Shown here: positions 5,007 to 17,829 of the stretch, in pieces
Layout: every line of letters starts with the position of its first letter
Position numbering within the stretch: position 1 is the first letter of the stretch
NCBI GenBank assembly: GCA_038127095.1
Contig: JAYPGZ010000007.1
Coordinates: 1-49,889 of the forward strand
Source of the DNA: Candidatus Roizmanbacteria bacterium
GTDB taxonomy: Bacteria; Patescibacteriota; Microgenomatia; UBA1406; HO2-37-13b
Length of the DNA: 49,889 bases
Reading direction: 5' to 3'
Notes under the pieces: model-generated
Database searches by the model: none
Told to the model about the DNA's origin: nothing
The model's input: the letters and a program-made list of their open reading frames with translations, nothing else
Made by a program: the position numbers and the translations under genes

Positions 5007-6629
5007 ATGAAGCACTATACCATCACCAGTCGCCCTGTTATGTCTCAAAATGAAAAAATGCTGTTTGGCGTATTATACGCATTGGGTCTTTCGGCTACCG
5101 TTTTATTTGCTTCATGGTGGTTTTTACCCGAGCATATTCCTCATAATTTCTCTGGGATACTGCATATTCTTGACTTTGGACTTTTTTTTGCGCTTTCATA
5201 TATTGTGTGGTATCAAATCATGAATGAGGTATTTTATTGGTACAACGCATCTGTTATGAGAACAATTGTGCCAACACGACCTGAAGTGGGCTTATCGGTT
5301 GCATTCTTAACAGCATTTGTGCCCGGGAGCGAATCGTATGAAGTGCTTGAAAAAAATGTTAAAGCAATGGTTGCTGTTGATTATCCACACGATACCTGGG
5401 TGCTAGATGAAGGAAATGATCAGACAGCAAAACAAATCTGTAAAAAATATGGTGCTCAGCATTTTTCTCGAAAAGGGATTGCTCGATACAATATGGAAGA
5501 AGGTGAGTTTAAAAAGAAAACTAAGGGAGGAAATTATAATGCGTGGTTTGACATGCATGGCTTGGAATACCACATTGTTGCACAAGTCGACGTTGACTTT
5601 ATTCCCAAAAAAAACTTTTTAATGCAAACTTTAGGTTACTTTAAAGATCCTAAAATTGCATTTGTTGGAACTCCGCAAATATATGGAAATCAGCATGAAT
5701 CCTGGATTGCACGAGGAAGTGCAGAGCAGGCGTTTAGCTTTTATGGTCCGATGCAGCGTGGTTTTAATTTTACTAACATGTCACTTTTTATTGGAGCTAA
5801 TCACGTATTTCGATCGATTGCACATAACGATGTAAATGGATACGCAGGACACATAGTTGAAGATCATTTAACTGGCATGAATATTTATAAGAAGAAATGG
5901 AAAAGTGTATATGTTCCAAAAGTGCTTGCAGTCGGAGAAGGTCCTGCCACGTGGAGTTCATATTTTCATCAGCAAATGCGATGGGCATATGGACTGTTTC
6001 ATATTCTTCTAAATCACAGTCCAAAGATTTATCCAACATTACGATTTCGTCACATAGTAAATTATGCAATACTGCAACAATATTATTTTTATGGAATTTT
6101 GCAAGTGTTGGGAATCATTTTATTAAGTACCTATTTCATATTTGGATTAAACGCAACAAATGCAGAAGTAATACCTATGATTAGTGCTTACGCTCTCCTA
6201 CTCGCAGTTCAGTTACTAATAAGTACCTGGTTACAGCGATTTTTTGTAGATCCATCACAGGAATCTGGGCTGCATATTCGGGCTAAGTTACTCAACATAG
6301 CGGTTTGGCCTATTTATTTTCTCGCCTTTGTTTCGGTTCTTTTTAACAAAAAAATCACGTATAAAGTGACACCAAAAGGACACAAGGAACAAGGTCCAAC
6401 AAGTATCGTCTTGTTTTTGCCCCATGCATTATTAGGAGTACTTTCTGCAATTACAATTGCTGTAGGAGTGAATACTCAGCACACCGCGTTGCATCTCATG
6501 TTTTTTGCACTGTTAAACACTAGTGCAATGTTTGGATTTTTTTGCATGGTATTGCTTGAAAACATTCGTCATTATTTCAGAAATATACGAATAAAACTAC
6601 AGATACCGCTTCTGTTCAACCCATCATAA
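5007..6629 (+). CDS. Processive GT2, cellulose synthase catalytic subunit (BcsA)-like, without PilZ
   Basis: LDEG, KGGNYN, DVD, TPQ, VED and QQMRW (D,D,D,QxxRW) with flanking TM helices. Confidence 0.88.
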   Translation: MKHYTITSRPVMSQNEKMLFGVLYALGLSATVLFASWWFLPEHIPHNFSGILHILDFGLFFALSYIVWYQIMNEVFYWYNASVMRTIVPTRPEVGLSVAFLTAFVPGSESYEVLEKNVKAMVAVDYPHDTWVLDEGNDQTAKQICKKYGAQHFSRKGIARYNMEEGEFKKKTKGGNYNAWFDMHGLEYHIVAQVDVDFIPKKNFLMQTLGYFKDPKIAFVGTPQIYGNQHESWIARGSAEQAFSFYGPMQRGFNFTNMSLFIGANHVFRSIAHNDVNGYAGHIVEDHLTGMNIYKKKWKSVYVPKVLAVGEGPATWSSYFHQQMRWAYGLFHILLNHSPKIYPTLRFRHIVNYAILQQYYFYGILQVLGIILLSTYFIFGLNATNAEVIPMISAYALLLAVQLLISTWLQRFFVDPSQESGLHIRAKLLNIAVWPIYFLAFVSVLFNKKITYKVTPKGHKEQGPTSIVLFLPHALLGVLSAITIAVGVNTQHTALHLMFFALLNTSAMFGFFCMVLLENIRHYFRNIRIKLQIPLLFNPS

Positions 6630-10966: not shown

Positions 10967-11021
10967 AATACAGCCCAATTCTTTGGTTTACTTTTGTGTG
11001 TAAATAATGTATGATCGTTTT

Positions 11022-11468
11022 ATGAAAGTAAAAGTTTTTTTAGCAATATTTGCCGGAATATTACTAGTCATTTTTTTTCAATATACCCGTAATGAAAAAG
11101 CAGCCGTTACTATTCCTCCGGTTGCACAAGAATTGACCAAAAACACTACTCGCTATGCTGTGTATACCCCACAAAATCTTTTAGATGCTAAAAATACTAA
11201 AAGAGTATTATTTTTTTATGCATCGTGGTGTCCAACATGTATTCCCGTAGACGCTGATTTTCGTCAAAATGCCTCGTTAATACCACAAGGGGTTACGGTA
11301 ATTCGCGTAAATTATAATGATCCAGACACTGATGCTATGGAAAAAGAATTGGCCGATAAATATAACGTTACTTATCAGCATACATTTGTGCAAATTGATG
11401 AAAGTGATATGGTTGTAAATAAATGGAATGGAGGAAAAACTGAAAAGTTGATCGAAAATATTCAATAG
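11022..11468 (+). CDS. Membrane-anchored thioredoxin-family protein
   Basis: N-terminal TM helix, FFYASWCPTC active site and YNVTYQHTFV. Confidence 0.88.
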   Translation: MKVKVFLAIFAGILLVIFFQYTRNEKAAVTIPPVAQELTKNTTRYAVYTPQNLLDAKNTKRVLFFYASWCPTCIPVDADFRQNASLIPQGVTVIRVNYNDPDTDAMEKELADKYNVTYQHTFVQIDESDMVVNKWNGGKTEKLIENIQ

Positions 11469-11471
11469 TAA

Positions 11472-12230
11472 ATGATATTATTACTCATTTTTTCATTTGT
11501 ATCAGGTGTAGTGACCGTTTTGTCTCCGTGTATCTTGCCTATTTTGCCAATTATTTTATCTTCGACAGTGGGAGCAAAGGAAATTAACAGACAAAGACCC
11601 ATTGGAGTTATTATTGGATTTGTGAGTAGCTTTACATTTTTTACCCTGTTTTTGACTTCAATTATTAGTTTGTTTGGAATTCCTGCACAGACGTTACGAT
11701 TGTTTTCGGTGGCAGTAATTGGTTTTTTTGGAATTTCACTCCTCGTGCCGTCTGCTCAGGCTTATGTAGAACGATTATTTACCCGTCTTACTCGCATCGT
11801 TACACCAACATCTCAACGACCTGGAATACTAGGAGGGGTGTTAGTAGGATTTTCTATTGGATTACTATGGACACCGTGTGTTGGTCCTATTCTTGCATCG
11901 GTATTATCGTTGGCTATTATCGGTTCAGTCACGATCGATGCTTTTTTAATTACACTTGCATATTCTCTGGGTACAGCTATCCCAATGTTTATGATCATGC
12001 TCGCAGGTCAAAATGCGCTTCGTTCGGTTCCGTGGTTAGTCAACAGAACGCAGGAAATTCAAAAAACTTTTGGAGTTATTATGGTGTTAACCGCGATTGG
12101 TATTTATTTTGGAATAGACAAATCTTTTCAAGTGTATATTCTTAACCTCTTTCCCAATTATGCGCAAACATTGGTTGGACTAGAAGAAAGTGCTTTCGTG
12201 CAAGATCTTCTTAAAAATCTTAAGAAATAA
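11472..12230 (+). CDS. ccdA: CcdA/DsbD-beta family membrane electron transporter
   Basis: LSPCILPILP and WTPCVGPIL motifs; 6 TMs. Confidence 0.88.
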   Translation: MILLLIFSFVSGVVTVLSPCILPILPIILSSTVGAKEINRQRPIGVIIGFVSSFTFFTLFLTSIISLFGIPAQTLRLFSVAVIGFFGISLLVPSAQAYVERLFTRLTRIVTPTSQRPGILGGVLVGFSIGLLWTPCVGPILASVLSLAIIGSVTIDAFLITLAYSLGTAIPMFMIMLAGQNALRSVPWLVNRTQEIQKTFGVIMVLTAIGIYFGIDKSFQVYILNLFPNYAQTLVGLEESAFVQDLLKNLKK

Positions 12231-12250: not shown

Positions 12251-13723
12251 ATGCCTCGTAAAAAAGTAATTATTATTGGTAGTGGTTTTGGCGGACTCTG
12301 TAGTGCGGCATTGCTGGCAAAAGAAGGCTACGATGTAACGGTGCTTGAAAAAAATTCCCGTATGGGCGGTCGTGCTATGACATTTGATCGCAAAGGCTAC
12401 CACTTTGATATGGGTCCTTCGTGGTATTTAATGCCTGAAGTATTTGAAGATTACATGAAGATATTTGGAAAAAACATTGCTGATTATATAACTTTACGCC
12501 CTCTTGATCCAATGTATAGAATGTTTTTTTCACCGACCGATTATATTGATATTGTACGTGATTTAGAACAGAATTTAAAAATATTTGAATCGATTGAAAA
12601 GGGAGCCAGCGTATCGATTCGAGCATATCTTGATCAAGCAAAAACTCAATATGAAATTGCAATGAAGCATTTTTTATATACTGAATTTAAATCGATATTC
12701 GATTTTATTAAGCCAGAGCTTCTTACTGTTGGGAAAAAGGTTTCAGTTTTTAAGAACCTGCAAGACCATATTGCATCTTTTACCAAAGATAATCGGCTGC
12801 AAAAAATATTGGGATATACAATGGTTTTTTTGGGTGGAGCTCCTCGTAATACACCCGCATTATATTCGCTCATGTCGCATGTTGATTATAATTTAGGAGT
12901 GTTTTACCCAATAGGAGGATTTGGAGCACTTGCTGATGCATTTGTAAAACTTGGTAAAGAATATGGAGTGCGGTATTATCCTTCGCATACGGTTAAAAGA
13001 ATTAAAACAGAGAACGGGAAAGCAACTGCTGTTATTACTGATAAGCAAATCTTTCAGGCTGATCTTGTTCTTGCAAATGCTGATTATCAACATGTGGAAT
13101 CTAAATTACTTCTGGAAGCAGATCGTACATATCACTCTTCATACTGGGAAGCTAAAACACTTGCACCGTCAGCATTTATTATTCATCTTGGTATGAAGGG
13201 TAGAGTACCAAATGTGAAACATCATAATCTTATTTTGACCCATGATTGGCAGAAACATTTTGACGATATTTTTAAAAAGCCAAAATGGCCTAAGCAGCCT
13301 TCGTACTATGTTTGTTGTCCTACAAAAACCGATAACACAATTGCACCCAAAAATTGTGACGAGCTATTTATTTTAGTTCCAGTGGCATCGGGTTTAAAAG
13401 ACACTCCATTACAGAGAAAAAAATATTATGAAAAAATTATGGATGATCTTGAACTACATGTGAAATTCCCGATCCGTTCTCATATTGCATATAAACGAAT
13501 GTATGCTCATGCCGATTTTACTGCTGATTATAATGCATATAAAGGAACTGCTTTGGGCCTTGCTCATACGCTTTCGCAAACAGCAATTCTGCGACCTTCA
13601 ATGAAAAGTAAGAAAGTATCTAATTTATATTTTGTCGGACAATACACACAACCGGGAATTGGAGTACCGATTGCGGTTATTTCTGCGCAGTTAGCTGCAA
13701 AAAGAATACATGAAGAAAATTAA
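12251..13723 (+). CDS. crtI: Phytoene desaturase / CrtI-CrtD family carotenoid desaturase
   Basis: IIGSGFGG FAD-binding motif, FDMGPSW, YPIGG, GLAHTLSQT and LYFVGQYTQPGIGVP. Confidence 0.9.
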   Translation: MPRKKVIIIGSGFGGLCSAALLAKEGYDVTVLEKNSRMGGRAMTFDRKGYHFDMGPSWYLMPEVFEDYMKIFGKNIADYITLRPLDPMYRMFFSPTDYIDIVRDLEQNLKIFESIEKGASVSIRAYLDQAKTQYEIAMKHFLYTEFKSIFDFIKPELLTVGKKVSVFKNLQDHIASFTKDNRLQKILGYTMVFLGGAPRNTPALYSLMSHVDYNLGVFYPIGGFGALADAFVKLGKEYGVRYYPSHTVKRIKTENGKATAVITDKQIFQADLVLANADYQHVESKLLLEADRTYHSSYWEAKTLAPSAFIIHLGMKGRVPNVKHHNLILTHDWQKHFDDIFKKPKWPKQPSYYVCCPTKTDNTIAPKNCDELFILVPVASGLKDTPLQRKKYYEKIMDDLELHVKFPIRSHIAYKRMYAHADFTADYNAYKGTALGLAHTLSQTAILRPSMKSKKVSNLYFVGQYTQPGIGVPIAVISAQLAAKRIHEEN

Positions 13724-14537
13724 TGCGTCTGAAGAAAAAAGAAAATTATTCAAGAAATCGAGTACAACATATTATTATTCGAGTCTATTTTTTACCGGTC
13801 AAATAAAAAGTGATGTTTTTGCCTTGTATGCTTTTGTTAGATATGCTGATAATTTAGTTGATGCAATTCCACCCAAAAAAATTGAATTTTCTCGTTTTTG
13901 CAAAAAGGTTCATCAGGCGTATGGCGGAAAAGTACTCAAAGACCACATTATCGATGATTTCATTGAGTTGTCGCATCGAAAAAAGTTTGATAAAGCCTGG
14001 ACAAATGCATTTTTATCTTCAATGAAAGCGGACTTAACAAAGCATCATTACAAGACGTATGAAGAACTACAAAAATATATGTATGGATCTGCAAATGTTA
14101 TCGGACTATTTATGAGCGCAATTTTTAATTCGAGTCCTCGAGTATTTCCTTACGCACAAGCACAAGGTGAGGCTATGCAATTTATTAATTTTATCCGCGA
14201 TGTGCAAGAAGATTTTGAATTAGGCCGTCAATATATACCCGAAGATGACGTAAAAAAATTTAACACCCATATTCCTCCAAAACCTGGGGAAGAAGAGGCG
14301 TTTTGTTTGCTCATGAGATCACAAATCGACAAGTACAGAAAAATTCAACAGTATGCGAATAAAGGACATAAATATATTGACAAGCGTTTTAGAATAATGG
14401 TCAAAACATCTGCCAAAATGTATGAGTGGACTGCAGACCAAATTTATAGAGACCCGCTTATAGTATTTCGAAAGAAAGTTAAGCCGGCAAAGTGGTATGT
14501 AATTGCATCGGTTATCAGACACGCTCTTTTTTCTTAA
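13710..14537 (+). CDS. crtB: Phytoene synthase
   Basis: LYAFVRYADNLVD, YMYGSA and NFIRDVQED..GRQYIP motifs; overlaps crtI. Confidence 0.9.
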   Translation: MKKINASEEKRKLFKKSSTTYYYSSLFFTGQIKSDVFALYAFVRYADNLVDAIPPKKIEFSRFCKKVHQAYGGKVLKDHIIDDFIELSHRKKFDKAWTNAFLSSMKADLTKHHYKTYEELQKYMYGSANVIGLFMSAIFNSSPRVFPYAQAQGEAMQFINFIRDVQEDFELGRQYIPEDDVKKFNTHIPPKPGEEEAFCLLMRSQIDKYRKIQQYANKGHKYIDKRFRIMVKTSAKMYEWTADQIYRDPLIVFRKKVKPAKWYVIASVIRHALFS

Positions 14538-14541
14538 TGAT

Positions 14542-15390
14542 ATGTTGTTAGACAGGTTTGTTCTTATATTAAAAGTATCGCGTCCCCGATTTTGGTTATA
14601 TGTGGCAGGACCATATTTATTGGGTGCAGTAACCTTTACTTTGCAGAATCATACTGCACTTGAGTGGGTCGTATATGTATATGGGCTTATTTTTTTCCTT
14701 ATTCCTGCAAATATTATTTTATATGGCCTCAATGATTTCTTTGATATCGATACAGACCGTTACAATAAGAAAAAGTTTGGAAAAGAGGGACTACTCAATG
14801 GTGTAGCAGATCGAAAATTAGTAATAGTTTGTATTGTTTTTTGTTGTTTGCTTGCACTTCCACTTTTTTACTTTCTTAATGTGTATGCACGAGCGTTATT
14901 TATTTTGTTTCTTTTTTTGGCGTATGGATATAGCACTCCACCTTTACGATTCAAAATCCGTATTTTACTAGACAGCTTGTCGAATATTCTTTATGTGTTA
15001 CCTGGGCTAATCGCCTACATATATACGTCACAGCATATACCGCCCGTATCGGTTACTACCGCAAGTTTTTTGTGGGCAATTGCAATGCATTTATTTTCGG
15101 CAATTCCCGATATCGAACCCGATAAAAAAGCGGGCATTCAGACAACTGCTGTTTTTTTGGGTAAGAAAGAATCACTTCTCGTATGTTCGGTTTTATGGTT
15201 TTTTGCTGCAATTATTATGAGTTCATATTTATACATTTTTCTCGTCGGCATTATATATGCAACTATTCCACTAGTGATTTATTTTGGTGGTTCTTTAAGT
15301 AATCGGCTCGAGGTAATGTATTGGCGATTTCCCTATATCAATGGTTTTCTTGGATTGACCATCTTCATATATTTGTATTATTGGCTATGA
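14542..15390 (+). CDS. UbiA-family prenyltransferase, lycopene elongase (LyeJ/CrtEb)-like
   Basis: SRPRFWLY, YGLNDFFDIDTD, YSTPPLRFK and HLFSAIPDIEPDKKAGIQTTA motifs; lies inside the crt cluster. Confidence 0.82.
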   Translation: MLLDRFVLILKVSRPRFWLYVAGPYLLGAVTFTLQNHTALEWVVYVYGLIFFLIPANIILYGLNDFFDIDTDRYNKKKFGKEGLLNGVADRKLVIVCIVFCCLLALPLFYFLNVYARALFILFLFLAYGYSTPPLRFKIRILLDSLSNILYVLPGLIAYIYTSQHIPPVSVTTASFLWAIAMHLFSAIPDIEPDKKAGIQTTAVFLGKKESLLVCSVLWFFAAIIMSSYLYIFLVGIIYATIPLVIYFGGSLSNRLEVMYWRFPYINGFLGLTIFIYLYYWL

Positions 15391-16109
15391 AAGTATCTAT
15401 CATAATACCGACGTTAAATGAGTCGCACTATATTAAGCCACTTCTTACTTCTATACAAAAGCAAACTCACCCAATTCTTGAAGTGTTGGTCATCGATGGT
15501 GGATCAGTAGATAACACAGTGGAAATAGTGAAATCATTTCGTCAGGTGAACTGTTTTTACACGGACCAGCCTGTTGGAAATCAGCGTACTGTAGGAGGTT
15601 TCCATGCATCCGGAGATCTACTTATCTTTTTAGATGCGGACGTACAATTGGAGAAAGATTTTATTGCACGCGTGTTGGGAGAAATGAAAAGGAGGTCGCT
15701 TGATATTGCCTGTCCCCAATACACTCCATTTCCTGGTACTGTTTTTATTCGAATATTTTACGCAGTTTTTAATACTCTATTTGCACTGGTGCAAAACAAA
15801 AAAGCTTCTGGGGCAGGGTCGTGCATTTGTGTAAAAAAAGATTTATTCAAGCGTATTGGTGGGTTTGATGCTCGTATGCATTTTGATGATATTGTATTTA
15901 TCCGTAAAGCGAGTAAGCTTGGTAAGTTTGGCATTCTGCATTCATCAATTCATGTTTCTGACAGGAGGTTTCGACAGTATGGATTTCTCCAAACATGTAT
16001 TACATACGTGTATTTGGCCGTGTTGTTTGCTTTTGGATTTTTTAGACAGGCGAATAATGTTCCGTATATATTTGGCAAATTTTCATCTATTACTAAAAAA
16101 AAGGTATAA
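15387..16109 (+). CDS. GT2 glycosyltransferase (possible carotenoid glycosyltransferase)
   Basis: VSIIIPTLNE, IDGGSVDNT, FLDAD and SDRRF motifs; ATGA overlap with the elongase gene. Confidence 0.8.
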   Translation: MKVSIIIPTLNESHYIKPLLTSIQKQTHPILEVLVIDGGSVDNTVEIVKSFRQVNCFYTDQPVGNQRTVGGFHASGDLLIFLDADVQLEKDFIARVLGEMKRRSLDIACPQYTPFPGTVFIRIFYAVFNTLFALVQNKKASGAGSCICVKKDLFKRIGGFDARMHFDDIVFIRKASKLGKFGILHSSIHVSDRRFRQYGFLQTCITYVYLAVLFAFGFFRQANNVPYIFGKFSSITKKKV

Positions 16110-16116
16110 TTGGACC

Positions 16117-17175
16117 ATGAAAAATTTTAAAACATACAACGTCGAGAAAAGAGAATTACTGAGTGCGTTTGTGAAAACCTTTTTGAGCGATCAGAAAAAA
16201 CTCAGTGCTCAAATGCAGTTGCATGGAGCCTTAGATCGACTAGAACATTTTGCAACGCAAGGAAAAATGCTGCGAGGTGTTTTTGTAATGCTTTCTTATG
16301 AGATGTATGGTGGAGTGTCACGTGACGAAATTTTGCGTGTAGCAAGCGCTTTAGAATTAACGCATGCCACACTTCTTATTCATGACGATATCATGGATAA
16401 TGATCAAAAACGTCGTAATGAACCGACAATGTTTGCGCAATATTCCAGAGACGCTCAAAAACAACAGCTTGCAGATCCGGTCAGTTATGGAAAATCAGTA
16501 GCCATGATAGTAGGTGATACAGCTTTGTTACTTGCTTTTGAGTTACTCTCTTCAATTAATGTATCCTCAGAAGTGAAAAAGGAAATACTCGTCTCTTTTT
16601 CGCAAGAAATGGTACGAGTGGCAGGTGGACAACTGCTGGACTTCGATTTTGGCCAAATCCCTCTGCCGCGCACAGAAAATGAAATAGACGATATGTATCG
16701 GCTAAAAACAGGCGGATATACATTTTCATTGCCGTTTTTGTGCGGCGCGTTACTTGCAAATGCAAACAGTGCTGAGCGGGCAAAGCTCCATGAGTTAACG
16801 AGGATTTTAGGAAATACCTTTCAGCTAAAAGACGATGAGCTGGGTATTATGGGAGACAGTGAAGTTACCGGTAAAAGTCCGGGTTCCGATGTACGAGAAG
16901 GAAAAAAGACAATATTGTGGATGCGTTTGTATGCTGCCTGTACACAACAAGAAAAAAGCATACTTGATTCGTATTTGGGTACCTCATTAACATATGAGCA
17001 AATCCAAGAAATTCGTTCAATTTTGCATAAATATGAAATTATTGAAACGATCCAAAGAGAGATTGATACTGCAAAGGCGCGTGCGTATGAGATCATAGAC
17101 TCATTGAAAGTAGGCGAAAAATATAAAATAATTCTCAAGGAATTAACTGATTATAACGCGAGTCGAACTGCATAA
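16117..17175 (+). CDS. crtE: Polyprenyl diphosphate synthase (CrtE/IdsA-like)
   Basis: GKMLRG, LIHDDIMDND..RR, GQLLD, KTGGY, FQLKDDELG and SDVREGKKT motifs. Confidence 0.85.
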   Translation: MKNFKTYNVEKRELLSAFVKTFLSDQKKLSAQMQLHGALDRLEHFATQGKMLRGVFVMLSYEMYGGVSRDEILRVASALELTHATLLIHDDIMDNDQKRRNEPTMFAQYSRDAQKQQLADPVSYGKSVAMIVGDTALLLAFELLSSINVSSEVKKEILVSFSQEMVRVAGGQLLDFDFGQIPLPRTENEIDDMYRLKTGGYTFSLPFLCGALLANANSAERAKLHELTRILGNTFQLKDDELGIMGDSEVTGKSPGSDVREGKKTILWMRLYAACTQQEKSILDSYLGTSLTYEQIQEIRSILHKYEIIETIQREIDTAKARAYEIIDSLKVGEKYKIILKELTDYNASRTA

Positions 17176-17186
17176 TGAGACGCACA

Positions 17187-17732
17187 TTATGGTCGGGGTG
17201 CTACTATTCGAATATTATCGCTAATACATCGAGGATCCTTGGATGGATTTTTTGGGTCGCAGCACATAAAGTAGCTTCCTCCAGCTCTTCTTACCACATG
17301 TTTACATTCTACTCCGTATCCGCAGGCGAGTGAAAGTGCCGCTGAAGCATCGCCTCTGTTTGCTTTAACCGTTTGTTTTTGATCACAATATTCAAATTCT
17401 TTAGCCTGGCCCAGTGGAGCAATGCAGTTGCGAACGGCCTTTTCACCAATAATACAGTTGGTGCCAAATCCGCATAAACATAAGCCTTTCCTATCGGTTG
17501 ACTTGGCTTTTACACACGTAGTGCCTACGGCACATTCTTTATCCGATGAACAGCTCAAATTACAGCCCTTTACAGTGGTTTTAGCAAGCGACTCAACACT
17601 AACGTGCGATGTTAAAACGGCCGAAGATACCAAATAGGCCAAAATCAACAAAATACCAATAGTCAGTACTGGCAGAACCATAGGATTGTATTTGCCTCGG
17701 AAGGTATATGTTTTGAGTTTGGCTTTTTTCAT
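17187..17732 (-). CDS. Single-pass membrane protein with Cys-rich ectodomain
   Basis: Basic N-terminus, one TM, then 14 Cys; consensus promoter upstream. Confidence 0.75.
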   Translation of the reverse strand: MKKAKLKTYTFRGKYNPMVLPVLTIGILLILAYLVSSAVLTSHVSVESLAKTTVKGCNLSCSSDKECAVGTTCVKAKSTDRKGLCLCGFGTNCIIGEKAVRNCIAPLGQAKEFEYCDQKQTVKANRGDASAALSLACGYGVECKHVVRRAGGSYFMCCDPKNPSKDPRCISDNIRIVAPRP

Positions 17733-17744
17733 AGGTATAGAATA

Positions 17745-17774
17745 ATTATATGAACATTTTTGAGTAGATGTCAA
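17745..17774 (-). promoter_or_regulatory. Sigma70-type promoter TTGACA-N18-TATAAT
   Basis: Perfect hexamers on the minus strand, 12 nt before the ATG at 17732. Confidence 0.75.
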
Positions 17775-17829
17775 GGAATAAATAGCATTACTCAAATAAT
17801 ACATTTAAGTATAATAAATAGCATTCAAT

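Follow-up and report, generated by a model that had tools for sequence, protein, structure and literature searches.

Organization of the Carotenoid Gene Cluster

What could a tiny host-dependent bacterium make with a compact gene set for a long red membrane pigment resembling the haloarchaeal one? We addressed this question in a window (the whole stretch of 49,889 nucleotides analyzed here) from genome G000, which is 93% complete. Its affiliation with the CPR, as proposed in the preliminary description, was upheld by a Microgenomates-like DnaK, a size of ~1 Mb, and the absence of uL30. The same description had listed five adjacent or overlapping carotenoid genes; an ORF check reproduced their coordinates within 12251-17175, all on the plus strand, and Pfam and NCBIfam confirmed their families (table 1).

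Table 1. Genes of the cluster, with window positions given from the most likely start codons
Predicted product	Position	Strand	Length	Model
CrtID-type carotenoid desaturase	12251..13723	+	490 aa	NF058655 CrtID
SQS_PSY head-to-head condensing enzyme, CrtB by context	13710..14537	+	275 aa	PF00494
LyeJ-type UbiA prenyltransferase, lycopene C5-elongase/1,2-hydratase by homology	14542..15390	+	282 aa	PF01040, NF009516 PRK12875
Small GT2, candidate carotenoid C-1 hydroxyl glycosyltransferase	15387..16109	+	240 aa	PF00535
Short-chain trans-prenyl diphosphate synthase, GGPP synthase by context	16117..17175	+	352 aa	PF00348

The desaturase and SQS_PSY frames overlap by 14 nt, a gap of 4 nt separates SQS_PSY from UbiA, the GT2 start lies over the LyeJ stop in a 4-nt ATGA overlap, and 7 nt lie between GT2 and the prenyl synthase. 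All five frames are intact and single copy, as tblastn against the genome showed for the desaturase, SQS_PSY, and prenyl synthase genes. The order CrtID-CrtB-LyeJ-GT2-IDS recurred in four of the five related genomes with the UbiA gene (G001, G003, G017, and G020, the last seen up to GT2, where its contig stops before the prenyl synthase), and every gene junction was bridged by contigs from a second, independent study at ~98-99% identity. The arrangement thus reflects neither chance nor an assembly chimera. We proposed, with moderate confidence, that the cluster is a single operon whose five genes lead to an acyclic C50 carotenoid in the bacterioruberin series, ending in a glycoside. The thioredoxin-like and CcdA/DsbD-like pair noted directly upstream is indeed there (11007-12230, ending 20 nt before the desaturase), and in the three relatives' loci that reach upstream it does not lie beside the cluster.

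The Desaturase and the UbiA Prenyltransferase

The UbiA N-terminus had been described as typical of haloarchaeal LyeJ, and this was borne out. Its motif (...KVSRPRFWLYVAGP) also occurs in the LyeJ orthologues of Haloferax, Haloarcula, and Halomicrobium and is absent from the Arthrobacter CrtEb-type enzyme; the protein scored 266.5 bits against NCBIfam NF009516 (PRK12875; cut-off 205), on which the haloarchaeal LyeJ orthologues reach 435. It carries both Asp-rich motifs and the SRPRFW motif, and RP[RK]FW was found in 72 of 85 LyeJ-like rows. Against the CrtEb-type model PRK13105, it scored 127.7 bits (cut-off 217), whereas the Arthrobacter CrtEb, from a crtE-B-I-..-Eb cluster, scored 463 on PRK13105 and only 130 on PRK12875; with this score and an N-terminal motif of the LyeJ kind, assignment of UbiA to the actinobacterial CrtEb type was rejected. 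A pass of PRK12875 alone is no proof of LyeJ function, because a Haloferax larsenii plasmid paralogue without RPRFW scored 222.7, and its neighborhood comprises further UbiA genes along with a geranylgeranyl reductase and lacks carotenoid genes.

In two trees with weakly supported backbones, UbiA fell within the LyeJ-like radiation and paired with its counterpart from the same-genus genome G001 (SH-aLRT 99-100), and a branch of length 5 separated the DPPRT outgroup. The distant CtaB and MenA outgroups were drawn artefactually into the group, with branch lengths of 8-10, and the one CrtEb-type sequence was placed within the haloarchaeal clade on a long branch; thus, the trees supported a place among LyeJ-like proteins and gave no clean split between LyeJ and CrtEb.

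[quoted passage not shown] It scored 669.1 bits against NCBIfam NF058655 (cut-off 640), a model built for haloarchaeal bifunctional C40/C50 enzymes, on which the Haloferax desaturase adjoining LyeJ reached 764 and the Arthrobacter CrtI, at 453, stayed below the cut-off; on CrtD models it scored 227-228 (cut-offs 500-580). The gene is the sole CrtI-family member in G000 by tblastn, and a single desaturase would suffice because it is of the CrtID type. A bifunctional CrtI/CrtD desaturase has been described (PMC11946383).

CrtID and LyeJ were adjacent in nearly all of 80 genome-contig loci, and those of the window were 38-48% identical to their haloarchaeal counterparts. Judged from scores and motifs, then, the cassette is of the haloarchaeal bacterioruberin type and not of the actinobacterial CrtEb type. 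The preliminary description regarded such a pathway as striking in a CPR bacterium, a view that is weakened by a 2023 report of lyeJ, crtD, and cruF in Patescibacteria (PMC9948471) and by the common occurrence of LyeJ cassettes among public genomes of CPR and DPANN.

The Condensing Enzyme and the Prenyl Synthase

The two genes that would supply the carbon skeleton are set to family by sequence and to product by context. The SQS_PSY protein scored 164 bits on PF00494 and passed none of the NCBIfam equivalogs (HpnD 112 bits, CrtB models 53-87 bits); its top PDB relative was the phytoene synthase 5iys (56 bits), followed by CrtM entries, and we inferred CrtB, with C40 specificity, from its neighbors. 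Likewise, the gene labeled crtE is a prenyl synthase (PF00348, 166 bits), but it passed no NCBIfam equivalog (GGPP_syn 136 vs. 500; CrtE 80 vs. 460), and its best PDB relatives were the FPP synthase 8f8f and the GGPP synthase 3lk5. The sequence thus points to a short-chain synthase, probably for GGPP by context, and does not set the product length. Without equivalog passes, C40 and C30, as well as C20 and C15/C25, are compatible with the models.

A pathway from FPP could therefore be envisaged, in which a CrtM-like SQS_PSY would lead to an elongated C30-based (C35/C40) diapocarotenoid glycoside. The scores on CrtM and HpnC/D are about equal to those on CrtB, among PDB entries the IDS is closest to an FPP synthase, and C30 staphyloxanthin is glycosylated by a GT2-type enzyme. 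We nevertheless give this reading scarcely any credence: the desaturase passes a CrtID model derived from C40/C50 haloarchaeal enzymes, the CrtID-CrtB-LyeJ core is common to lineages whose relatives make C50 bacterioruberin, and we know of no LyeJ-type enzyme that acts on C30 substrates.

A Glycosyltransferase in the Position of CruF

As noted previously, neither a cyclase nor CruF is encoded in the cluster, and genome-wide searches for cruF and for cyclases (crtY and the C50 cyclase genes) found none elsewhere in G000 either, with the proviso that, at 93% completeness, CruF could sit on the missing DNA. Among 82 distinct loci other than the window, with GT2 counted when within 1.5 kb after LyeJ, CruF was found in 53, GT2 in 12, neither in 17, and both in none. 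With the window included, 13 loci, which span several phylum-level groups, have GT2 directly after LyeJ, and the GT2-linked loci are scattered in the LyeJ tree (seven changes, two of them forced by starred branches). At the genome level, one of 13 GT2-type genomes had CruF: G001 carries a CruF-family gene away from the cluster, and none was found in G000, G003, G017, G020, or the eight others. From its position, GT2 occupies the usual place of CruF after LyeJ, and the tailoring step appears to be what differs.

The GT2 protein scored 91.6 bits on PF00535 and 129 on TIGR04283 (below 182), and it has a DxD motif. CruC, CruG, and CrtQ are GT2-fold carotenoid glycosyltransferases proposed to act on the hydroxyl from a hydratase-type step, and CruC offers a precedent for glycosylation of a tertiary 1'-OH. 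CruG was compared by model score, and CruC and CrtQ by their known roles. Membership in the CruG family was rejected (57 bits vs. a cut-off of 600; 240 aa vs. 386 model positions), and, with CruG as the model tested, GT2 thus matched none of the known carotenoid glycosyltransferases above cut-off.

GT2 might instead serve another lipid, for example a polyprenyl-phosphate sugar, and be kept in the operon because the isoprenoid pool (prenyl synthase and UppS) is shared, in which case the pigment would carry no sugar and would be bisanhydrobacterioruberin or a C45 intermediate. The small size and the one hydrophobic C-terminal stretch are as in polyprenyl-phosphate GT2s, and the weak PDB relatives include ArnC and dolichol-phosphate mannose synthase. 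The 6-kb contigs of the two closest metagenome relatives (L147 and L148, 43-46% identity) carried no carotenoid gene; in the whole metagenome scan, carotenoid genes lay near GT2 relatives in 1 of 80 loci, 78 of which held distant GT2s. A Nudix domain was present in 6 of the best 120 GT2 relatives, the three tested being IDI type 1 over the cut-off, and such GT2-IDI fusions directly follow LyeJ in L034 and L063, a position in favor of the link between GT2 and LyeJ clusters; the fusion as such ties GT2 to isoprenoids generally, not to carotenoids specifically. However, a fixed position behind LyeJ across several phylum-level groups, with overlapping start and stop, argues against this reading, as does the mutual exclusion with CruF, which likewise makes the product of LyeJ more polar. 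Moreover, to the extent visible from the loci, relatives that have UppS but no LyeJ lack GT2, and general glycolipid work in G000 could fall to its other GT2-like matches, of which there are at least 10. We thus regard a role outside carotenoids as unlikely and proposed the carotenoid C-1 hydroxyl as the probable acceptor.

Supply of C5 Units

MEP, mevalonate, and IDI genes were not found in the genus of G000. Of 41 relatives, 2 had IspH and 12 had HMGR, whereas both were missing from the four genomes of this genus; MVK, IDI-1, and IDI-2 gave nothing over the cut-off in G000, G001, or G003, and the thiolase, HMGS, HMGR, and MVK of the G033 mevalonate operon had no tblastn match in G000. Although an IPP pathway could sit on the missing DNA of G000, the same absence was seen in G001 (99% complete) and G003 (98%). 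UppS was present in 5/5 genomes. This precursor gap in the genus was not visible to the earlier reader from the sequence alone. With no IPP or DMAPP genes in the genus, C5 units or a precursor must come from outside, and the absences suggest that IPP, DMAPP, or a precursor is obtained presumably from a host.

With no IPP source visible, the operon may lie idle if precursors are not taken up; the cassette would then be a recent acquisition or in decay and could not work for want of IPP and DMAPP. The LyeJ gene is patchy (6 of 41 relatives), and LyeJ and GT2 are 60-68% identical between G000 and G001, compared with 96% for TypA. We give an idle cluster very little credence, however, given five intact frames with their order kept in four relatives and the mostly synonymous differences from the second-study strain (21 of the 32 listed within the operon, the other 11 being non-synonymous). 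Furthermore, the cluster IDS is the only trans-prenyl synthase in G000 by tblastn, and with UppS also encoded, the cell has to acquire C5 units anyway. None of the RNA runs searched contains the stretch, which is neutral between an idle and an active cluster.

Proposed Pathway and Comparison with Known Clusters

A LyeJ-type UbiA in a CPR genome with no cyclase or CruF and a conserved GT2 makes an acyclic glycosylated C50 carotenoid the best reading; of the C45/C50 product suggested earlier, the C50 form is retained, and both its structure and the GT2 acceptor are predicted by homology and context. The prenyl synthase would make GGPP from C5 diphosphates, and probably also FPP for UppS, and SQS_PSY would join two GGPP into phytoene. 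The single CrtID would convert phytoene to lycopene and later introduce the 3,4 double bonds, while the LyeJ-type UbiA would extend each end at C-2 by a C5 unit and hydroxylate it at C-1, which together would yield bisanhydrobacterioruberin. The published order runs from lycopene through DHIDR, IDR, and DHBABR to BABR, which CruF converts to BR (PMC9122864). With no CruF, the isopentenyl side chains should stay unhydrated. Finally, the small and probably membrane-associated GT2 may add a sugar to the tertiary C-1 and C-1' hydroxyls, with a UDP-sugar as the probable donor; G000 has a GalU-like gene. The likely product, a glycosylated bisanhydrobacterioruberin-like C50 carotenoid, would be a bolaform pigment with polar caps; it would span and stiffen the membrane and may quench radicals.

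The haloarchaeal crtD(c0507)-lyeJ-cruF cluster (Haloarcula japonica, Halobacterium salinarum) likewise has a CrtID-type desaturase beside a LyeJ-type UbiA, passes the same NCBIfam equivalogs, and shares SRPRFW and both Asp-rich motifs. It differs in having CruF where the window has the small GT2 and in keeping crtB apart or on the other strand, whereas crtB and the prenyl synthase lie inside the operon here; its hosts are also unlike the one here, a CPR bacterium of 1 Mb in which no IPP pathway was found. Lake Baikal Patescibacteria were published in 2023 as carrying lyeJ, crtD, and cruF, which were interpreted as serving to make bacterioruberin for a role in the membrane (PMC9948471). In that report cruF is present and the genes are dispersed, and the text examined mentions no glycosyltransferase, crtB, or prenyl synthase; the five-gene operon with GT2 and without CruF is what is different here.

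The actinobacterial crtE-crtB-crtI-crtYe/Yf-crtEb clusters (decaprenoxanthin, C.p.450, sarcinaxanthin) also use a UbiA-family C5 elongase on lycopene and end in C50 glucosides; some include a crtX glycosyltransferase gene, and crtX is mentioned for the Dietzia cluster (PMC6669644). Unlike those clusters, the window has no C50 cyclase, and its UbiA stays below the CrtEb-type cut-off with a different N-terminal motif. In the Arthrobacter locus examined, no GT2 relative was found. In Arthrobacter, CruF is present and bacterioruberin is made in its fully hydrated form (PMC9122864), whereas without CruF the aglycone here should be the bisanhydro form. GT-2 enzymes are reported, at second hand, to glycosylate bacterioruberin. 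The bacterioruberin glycosides of pink Arthrobacter are acyclic C50 carotenoids with sugars, linked to membrane adaptation (PMC8709818, PMC10991996).

Organization and Conservation of the Operon

The five genes named in the preliminary description were found where it had placed them, as nearly unspaced ORFs on the + strand, and the Pfam assignments agreed with all five families (see table). GC content was even along the window (0.35-0.41). The genome itself, G000, was small (1.04 Mb in 66 contigs, 93% complete); the ribosomal protein uL30 (PF00327) was found in 0 of the 41 genomes of the group, G000 included, compared with 13 of 14 control genomes; and the DnaK encoded in the window was 94% identical to a "Microgenomates group bacterium" protein and 73-75% identical to Roizmanbacteria proteins, the nearest named ones. 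These features confirmed the CPR (Microgenomates) origin of the contig. The public records behind the related genomes G001, G003, and G033 (loci L028, L029, and L040) and many of the loci L031-L087 were likewise ~1-Mb, uL30-less genomes, titled "uncultured Gammaproteobacteria" (same genus) or "Limisphaerales" (G033); their markers and genome features were those of CPR, and the titles look like mislabels.

Coordinates of the genes discussed. Positions refer to the window unless a genome (G000, genome of the window; other G numbers, related genomes), contig (C), or compared locus (L) is given.
Feature	Length (aa)	Position	Strand	Remarks
Processive GT2 (Glyco_trans_2_3)	540	5007-6629	+	
Thioredoxin/DsbE-like protein and CcdA/DsbD-type membrane protein		11007-12230	+	Ends 20 nt upstream of desaturase
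Desaturase flavoprotein	490	12251-13723	+	ORF, Pfam
SQS_PSY protein	275	13710-14537	+	14-nt overlap with desaturase; Pfam
UbiA protein	282	14542-15390	+	ORF, Pfam
GT2	240	15387-16109	+	ATG overlapping UbiA stop; Pfam
Polyprenyl synthase	352	16117-17175	+	ORF, Pfam
Cysteine-rich protein	205	17187-17804	-	
IDI-like Nudix gene, GalU-like gene directly after it		G000:C1 (L020:1411-1941, 1938-2816)	- (both)	
Second UbiA-family protein		G000:C8:17933-18484 (L122:1411-2328)		
Geranylgeranyl-reductase-family flavoprotein	395	G000:C23 (L137:822-2009)	+	Next to DnaG
HMG-CoA reductase match		G017:C3:3331-4414		Two adjacent pieces
LyeJ paralogue on a Haloferax larsenii plasmid		L134:3950-4837		
GT2-IDI fusion		L034:5369-6661		Directly after LyeJ
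GT2-IDI fusion		L063:5803-6855		Directly after LyeJ

The LyeJ-type UbiA model NF009516 was passed in 6 of the 41 genomes of the genus, family, and order, G000 counted. The order CrtID-CrtB-LyeJ-GT2-IDS (IDS, prenyl diphosphate synthase) was kept in four of five relatives, namely G001 and G003 of the same genus and G017 and G020 of the same family, with the position of the IDS unseen in G020, where the contig stops before it. In G033, the order was CrtID-CrtB-IDS-LyeJ, followed by a CruF-family gene. DNA runs of two studies, one of them possibly the source, also contained the stretch; they were labeled estuary and activated sludge metagenome. In the second study, every operon junction was spanned by contigs at ~98-99% identity. 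Among the differences listed against this second study, a partial list beyond which lie 73 further differences, 32 fell in the operon and 21 of the 32 were synonymous, a share that fits purifying selection. RNA runs with the stretch were not listed, which says nothing either way.

A LyeJ-Type UbiA Protein

The UbiA protein (PF01040, 85.7 bits) contained both Asp-rich motifs, NDFFDIDTD (NDxxDxxxD) and DIEPD (DxxxD), and residues N64, D65, D68, D72, D190, and D194 were invariant across 27 relatives. It passed the LyeJ-type model PRK12875, equivalent to NF009516 (266.5 bits, cut-off 205), and failed the CrtEb-type model PRK13105 (127.7 bits, cut-off 217); for reference, the Haloferax and Haloarcula LyeJ orthologues scored 435 on the former and the Arthrobacter CrtEb-type enzyme 463 on the latter. 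An N-terminal SRPRFW motif was shared with the LyeJ-like sequences, of which 72 of 85 carried it, and was absent from the Arthrobacter CrtEb-type enzyme and the other UbiA families examined. The gene adjoins the CrtID-type desaturase gene. The haloarchaeal and Arthrobacter pattern of CruF beside LyeJ was not observed, as PF04240 gave 0 matches in the 93% complete G000.

Two quick maximum-likelihood trees, both with a weak backbone, placed the protein inside the LyeJ-like radiation, paired with its G001 counterpart (SH-aLRT 99-100), next to those of G017 and G003 (85), and distant from the other UbiA protein of the cell, which is DPPR-transferase-like. CtaB and MenA were rejected as roots, their very long branches having fallen inside the group as long-branch artefacts, and the single CrtEb-type sequence formed a long branch within the haloarchaeal clade. 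The trees show that the protein belongs to the LyeJ/CrtEb family, the grouping initially expected of it. As LyeJ and CrtEb are not clearly separated in them, this division was based on model scores, the SRPRFW motif, and gene context, by which the proposed LyeJ type proved largely right. The PRK12875 score calls for caution, since a Haloferax larsenii plasmid paralogue also passed this model (222.7 bits); the neighbors of that gene encode a geranylgeranyl reductase and two further UbiA prenyltransferases, with no carotenoid genes among them, and the paralogue itself lacks the SRPRFW motif and clusters, on a long branch, with the Arthrobacter CrtEb. The second UbiA-family protein of G000 resembled decaprenyl-phosphate phosphoribosyltransferase (192.7 vs 207 bits), and similar genes, as weak matches, were seen in most relatives.

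A pattern scan with one genome per species recovered 577 proteins related to the window's UbiA enzyme, and the 80 best of them included many from CPR (Magasanikbacteria, Levyibacteria, Gracilibacteria, Falkowbacteria, Paceibacteria, and Saccharibacteria labels), DPANN (Woesearchaeota and Nanohaloarchaea), some methanogen-labeled MAGs, and many Halobacteria. A CrtID-type gene was located directly upstream of LyeJ in nearly all of the 80, and in the bacterial and DPANN loci among them, crtB and the prenyl synthase usually belonged to the same operon.

The Desaturase and the Two Prenyl-Condensing Enzymes

The first gene of the operon, previously called crtI, does appear to encode a carotenoid desaturase, and its class was corrected to CrtID: the protein passed NF058655 (CrtID, bifunctional phytoene desaturase/3,4-desaturase; 669.1 bits, cut-off 640) and remained below the cut-off of the CrtD models, the class being set by these equivalog scores. 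On the CrtID model, the desaturase neighboring LyeJ in Haloferax scored 764 and the CrtI from an Arthrobacter decaprenoxanthin-type cluster 453. As the only such gene in G000, and being of the CrtID type, it could serve both the steps to lycopene and the later 3,4-desaturations. Two Haloarcula japonica proteins, C0507 and D1086, each have both desaturase activities according to PMC11946383, a finding with which the name of the model agrees.

The SQS_PSY protein (PF00494, 164 bits) scored 53-87 bits on the CrtB models, compared with cut-offs of 480-550, and 112 on HpnD, so that no equivalog was passed; its nearest solved relatives in PDB were phytoene synthase (56 bits) and CrtM (44 bits). Likewise, the prenyl synthase (PF00348, 166 bits) passed no equivalog, with 136 bits on GGPP_syn (cut-off 500) and 80 on CrtE (cut-off 460), and its nearest solved relatives in PDB were FPP synthase and GGPP synthase. 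Its translation had no aromatic residue at positions -4/-5 before DDIMD, an arrangement that would permit products of C20 or longer. We inferred a C40 specificity for the SQS_PSY protein, and a C20 product for the prenyl synthase, from context.

A GT2 Gene in Place of CruF

Two families were observed directly after LyeJ in the compared loci: CruF-like proteins (44 loci), of which the G033 member scored 139 bits on the CruF model, and GT2 proteins of the window's type (13 loci, duplicates counted). In a census of 82 distinct loci, with the window excluded, CruF was present anywhere in the locus in 53 and a GT2 within 1.5 kb after LyeJ in 12; 17 loci had neither, and none had both. The GT2-type loci were labeled Levyibacteria, Gracilibacteria, Paceibacteria, and Armatimonadota (Fimbriimonadales), with one on a 5.3-Mb chromosome, and were scattered over the LyeJ tree with seven label changes, only two of which were forced by well-supported branches. 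At the level of whole genomes, 1 of the 13 of GT2 type had CruF: a weak CruF-family gene lay far from the cluster in G001, with no counterpart in G000, and CruF was not found in G000, G003, G017, or G020, nor in the eight other GT2-type genomes.

Among the best 120 of 917 relatives of the GT2, six (P0276, P0289, P0297, P0303, P0319, and P0326) carried a fused Nudix domain, and in all three fusions tested this C-terminal domain was an IPP isomerase (IDI) type 1 above the cut-off. The GT2-IDI fusions were 416-430 aa long and ~45% identical to the window's GT2, some being labeled Armatimonadota, and at two loci, L034 and L063, such fusions stood in CrtID-CrtB-LyeJ clusters. The GT2 is tied to the pathway by four features in combination: its operon position, the start/stop overlap, the mutual exclusion with CruF, and the fusion to an isoprenoid enzyme. 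A role outside carotenoid synthesis has evidence of its own, however. The GT2 reached 57 bits on CruG, the carotenoid GT2 model compared (cut-off 600), its weak solved relatives included polyprenyl-phosphate transferases, and its two nearest relatives on metagenome contigs had no carotenoid neighbors, the contigs being short; each of these points counts against the carotenoid tie. Its best NCBIfam model, TIGR04283, was also failed (129 vs 182).

Other surveys bore little on linkage. When metagenomes were scanned with the GT2 alignment, the pattern was a generic GT2 N-terminus, and for this reason 78 of the 80 metagenome loci were distant GT2s (28-39% identity), which say nothing on linkage. 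Plasmid matches were of 25-35% identity only, and the two contexts inspected (Thermomicrobium and Parasedimentitalea) were without carotenoid genes and uninformative. In a rough count by eye, at least 16 of the best 120 GT2 relatives had a longest contig equal in length to that of one of the best 120 LyeJ relatives, which is a hint of co-location only.

The lyeJ, crtD, and cruF genes were described in Lake Baikal Patescibacteria in 2023, with a membrane role in the cold proposed (passages of PMC9948471). A LyeJ pathway had thus been known from CPR before, which weakens the view of the preliminary description that such a pigment in CPR would be striking. PMC7306690 refers to CPR in connection with SHC only. 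New are the GT2-for-CruF variant together with its fusions to IDI, an operon in which all five genes stand self-contained, and the gap in IPP supply. Searches of openly accessible main texts found neither the GT2-for-CruF variant nor the GT2-IDI fusion described.

Predicted End Product

In the pathway set out in passages of PMC9122864, Lye converts lycopene to DHIDR and CrtD converts DHIDR to IDR; Lye then converts IDR to DHBABR, CrtD converts DHBABR to bisanhydrobacterioruberin (BABR), and CruF converts BABR to bacterioruberin. The LyeJ-type enzyme of the window would elongate lycopene by C5 at C-2 and hydroxylate it at C-1. As no CruF was found, the pathway should stop at BABR, whose C50 chain would be acyclic and bear a tertiary hydroxyl at either end. 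The GT2, with its DxD motif and C-terminal hydrophobic stretch, would then glycosylate both tertiary hydroxyls, providing polar caps instead of the two extra hydroxyls of CruF. Glycosylation of bacterioruberin by GT-2 enzymes is mentioned in a passage of PMC10991996, which cites another work. The actinobacterial clusters for cyclic C50 carotenoids can include crtX, as noted in parts of PMC6669644; the cluster treated there is a crtEb cluster, not a LyeJ-GT2 cluster.

Searches of G000 agreed with the absence of a cyclase and of CruF noted for the cluster. The heterodimeric lycopene cyclase model TIGR03462 gave 0 matches, and an ORF on contig C23 with a PF05834 match was rejected as a lycopene cyclase (35 vs 209 on the cyclase model), being a geranylgeranyl-reductase-family flavoprotein (TIGR02032, 120.7 bits, cut-off 158.8). 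Product and GT2 acceptor are both predictions; a glycosylated acyclic C50 pigment is the probable product, and in this the initial proposal was largely right. A GalU-like UTP-glucose-1-phosphate uridylyltransferase (UDP-glucose; 312.7 vs 326.8), encoded directly after an IDI-like Nudix protein on contig C1, possibly supplies the sugar donor. Rhodopsin (PF01036) had no match in G000 or in any of the 14 control genomes, which says nothing on a rhodopsin link.

Isoprenoid Precursor Supply

Of the 41 related genomes, 2 had IspH and 12 had HMG-CoA reductase; the four genomes of the genus, two of them 98-99% complete, showed neither. Mevalonate kinase, IDI-1, and IDI-2 were not above the cut-off in G000, G001, or G003, and the mevalonate operon of G033 (thiolase, HMG-CoA synthase, reductase, and kinase) had no tblastn counterpart in G000. 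The search for MVA/MEP and idi genes suggested at the outset thus found none in the genus.

Three candidates were rejected. The IDI-like (IDI/YfcD-like) Nudix protein of contig C1 failed as IPP isomerase type 1 (54 vs 127 bits); it reads WGPSAAG, compared with WSNSCCG in the IDI domain of the fusion P0276, with Ala in place of the Cys that is catalytic in IDI. The only AA_kinase-family gene of G000 was an archaeal-type UMP kinase (177.9 vs 158) and not an IPK (36.7 vs 120 on the IPK model). The DXS model PF13292 gave weak partial matches (27-37 bits, positions ~15-170 of 274) in ORFs of 624-671 aa in six of six genomes, which we read as putative transketolase-like TPP enzymes rather than DXS. 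In G017, the HMG-CoA reductase match came as two neighboring segments (model positions 3-60 and 67-367), which may reflect a frameshift or a split gene.

The operon prenyl synthase was the only trans-prenyl synthase in G000; G002 had a different one, 27% identical and in another context. As no IPP genes were found, yet UppS and this sole trans-prenyl synthase are present, the cell would depend on an outside source of C5 units or of a precursor, and the operon synthase probably also supplies FPP for synthesis of the cell-wall lipid carrier; both conclusions derive from absences in draft genomes. Among the relatives, a trans-prenyl diphosphate synthase was not seen in 19 of 41, and UppS was present in all five genomes tested.

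A Possible Sugar-Capped C50 Carotenoid in a Host-Dependent Bacterium

The observations leave room for a joint reading that we advance tentatively, regarding it as somewhat doubtful as a whole. A CPR bacterium without an IPP route would use isoprenoid units of its host to build a C50 carotenoid that spans the membrane and is capped with sugar, with the operon synthase as the sole source of FPP. The 240-aa GT2 would represent a new glycosyltransferase family acting on tertiary hydroxyls of carotenoids, one that repeatedly replaced CruF in CPR, Armatimonadota-labeled, and other uncultured lineages, sometimes fused to IDI, and the product would be an undescribed BABR mono- or diglycoside. If this reading is true, host-dependent ultra-small bacteria that can make neither fatty acids nor isoprenoid units nevertheless spend five genes on a rigid, polar-capped C50 lipid, which would bear on how CPR stabilize and protect membranes of scavenged lipids, and would imply a testable dependency, the uptake of host C5 or C15 isoprenoid diphosphates or precursors. 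It would also provide a candidate for the step by which acyclic C50 carotenoids are glycosylated, as yet poorly defined, and would mean that the LyeJ product is capped in nature by either CruF or GT2. With a length of 4.9 kb and self-contained, the operon is easily tested in a lycopene- or IPP-overproducing host.

Neighboring Genes

The thioredoxin-CcdA pair reported directly upstream of the operon is indeed there and may be co-transcribed with it in the window; it was not found in the three loci of relatives that extend upstream, and is a local neighbor rather than a conserved feature. Scans of the window gave promoter-like and terminator-like sites at chance level (24 vs 26.7 expected and 4 vs 4.7 expected, respectively) and no tRNA or Rfam match. 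The processive GT2 encoded upstream had weak cellulose-synthase similarity and was preceded by three ORFs of 196-205 aa without a family match. On the other strand, downstream of the operon, the cysteine-rich protein had a hydrophobic N-terminal stretch and no Pfam or NCBIfam match, and was 75% identical to a G001 protein encoded in the corresponding position.
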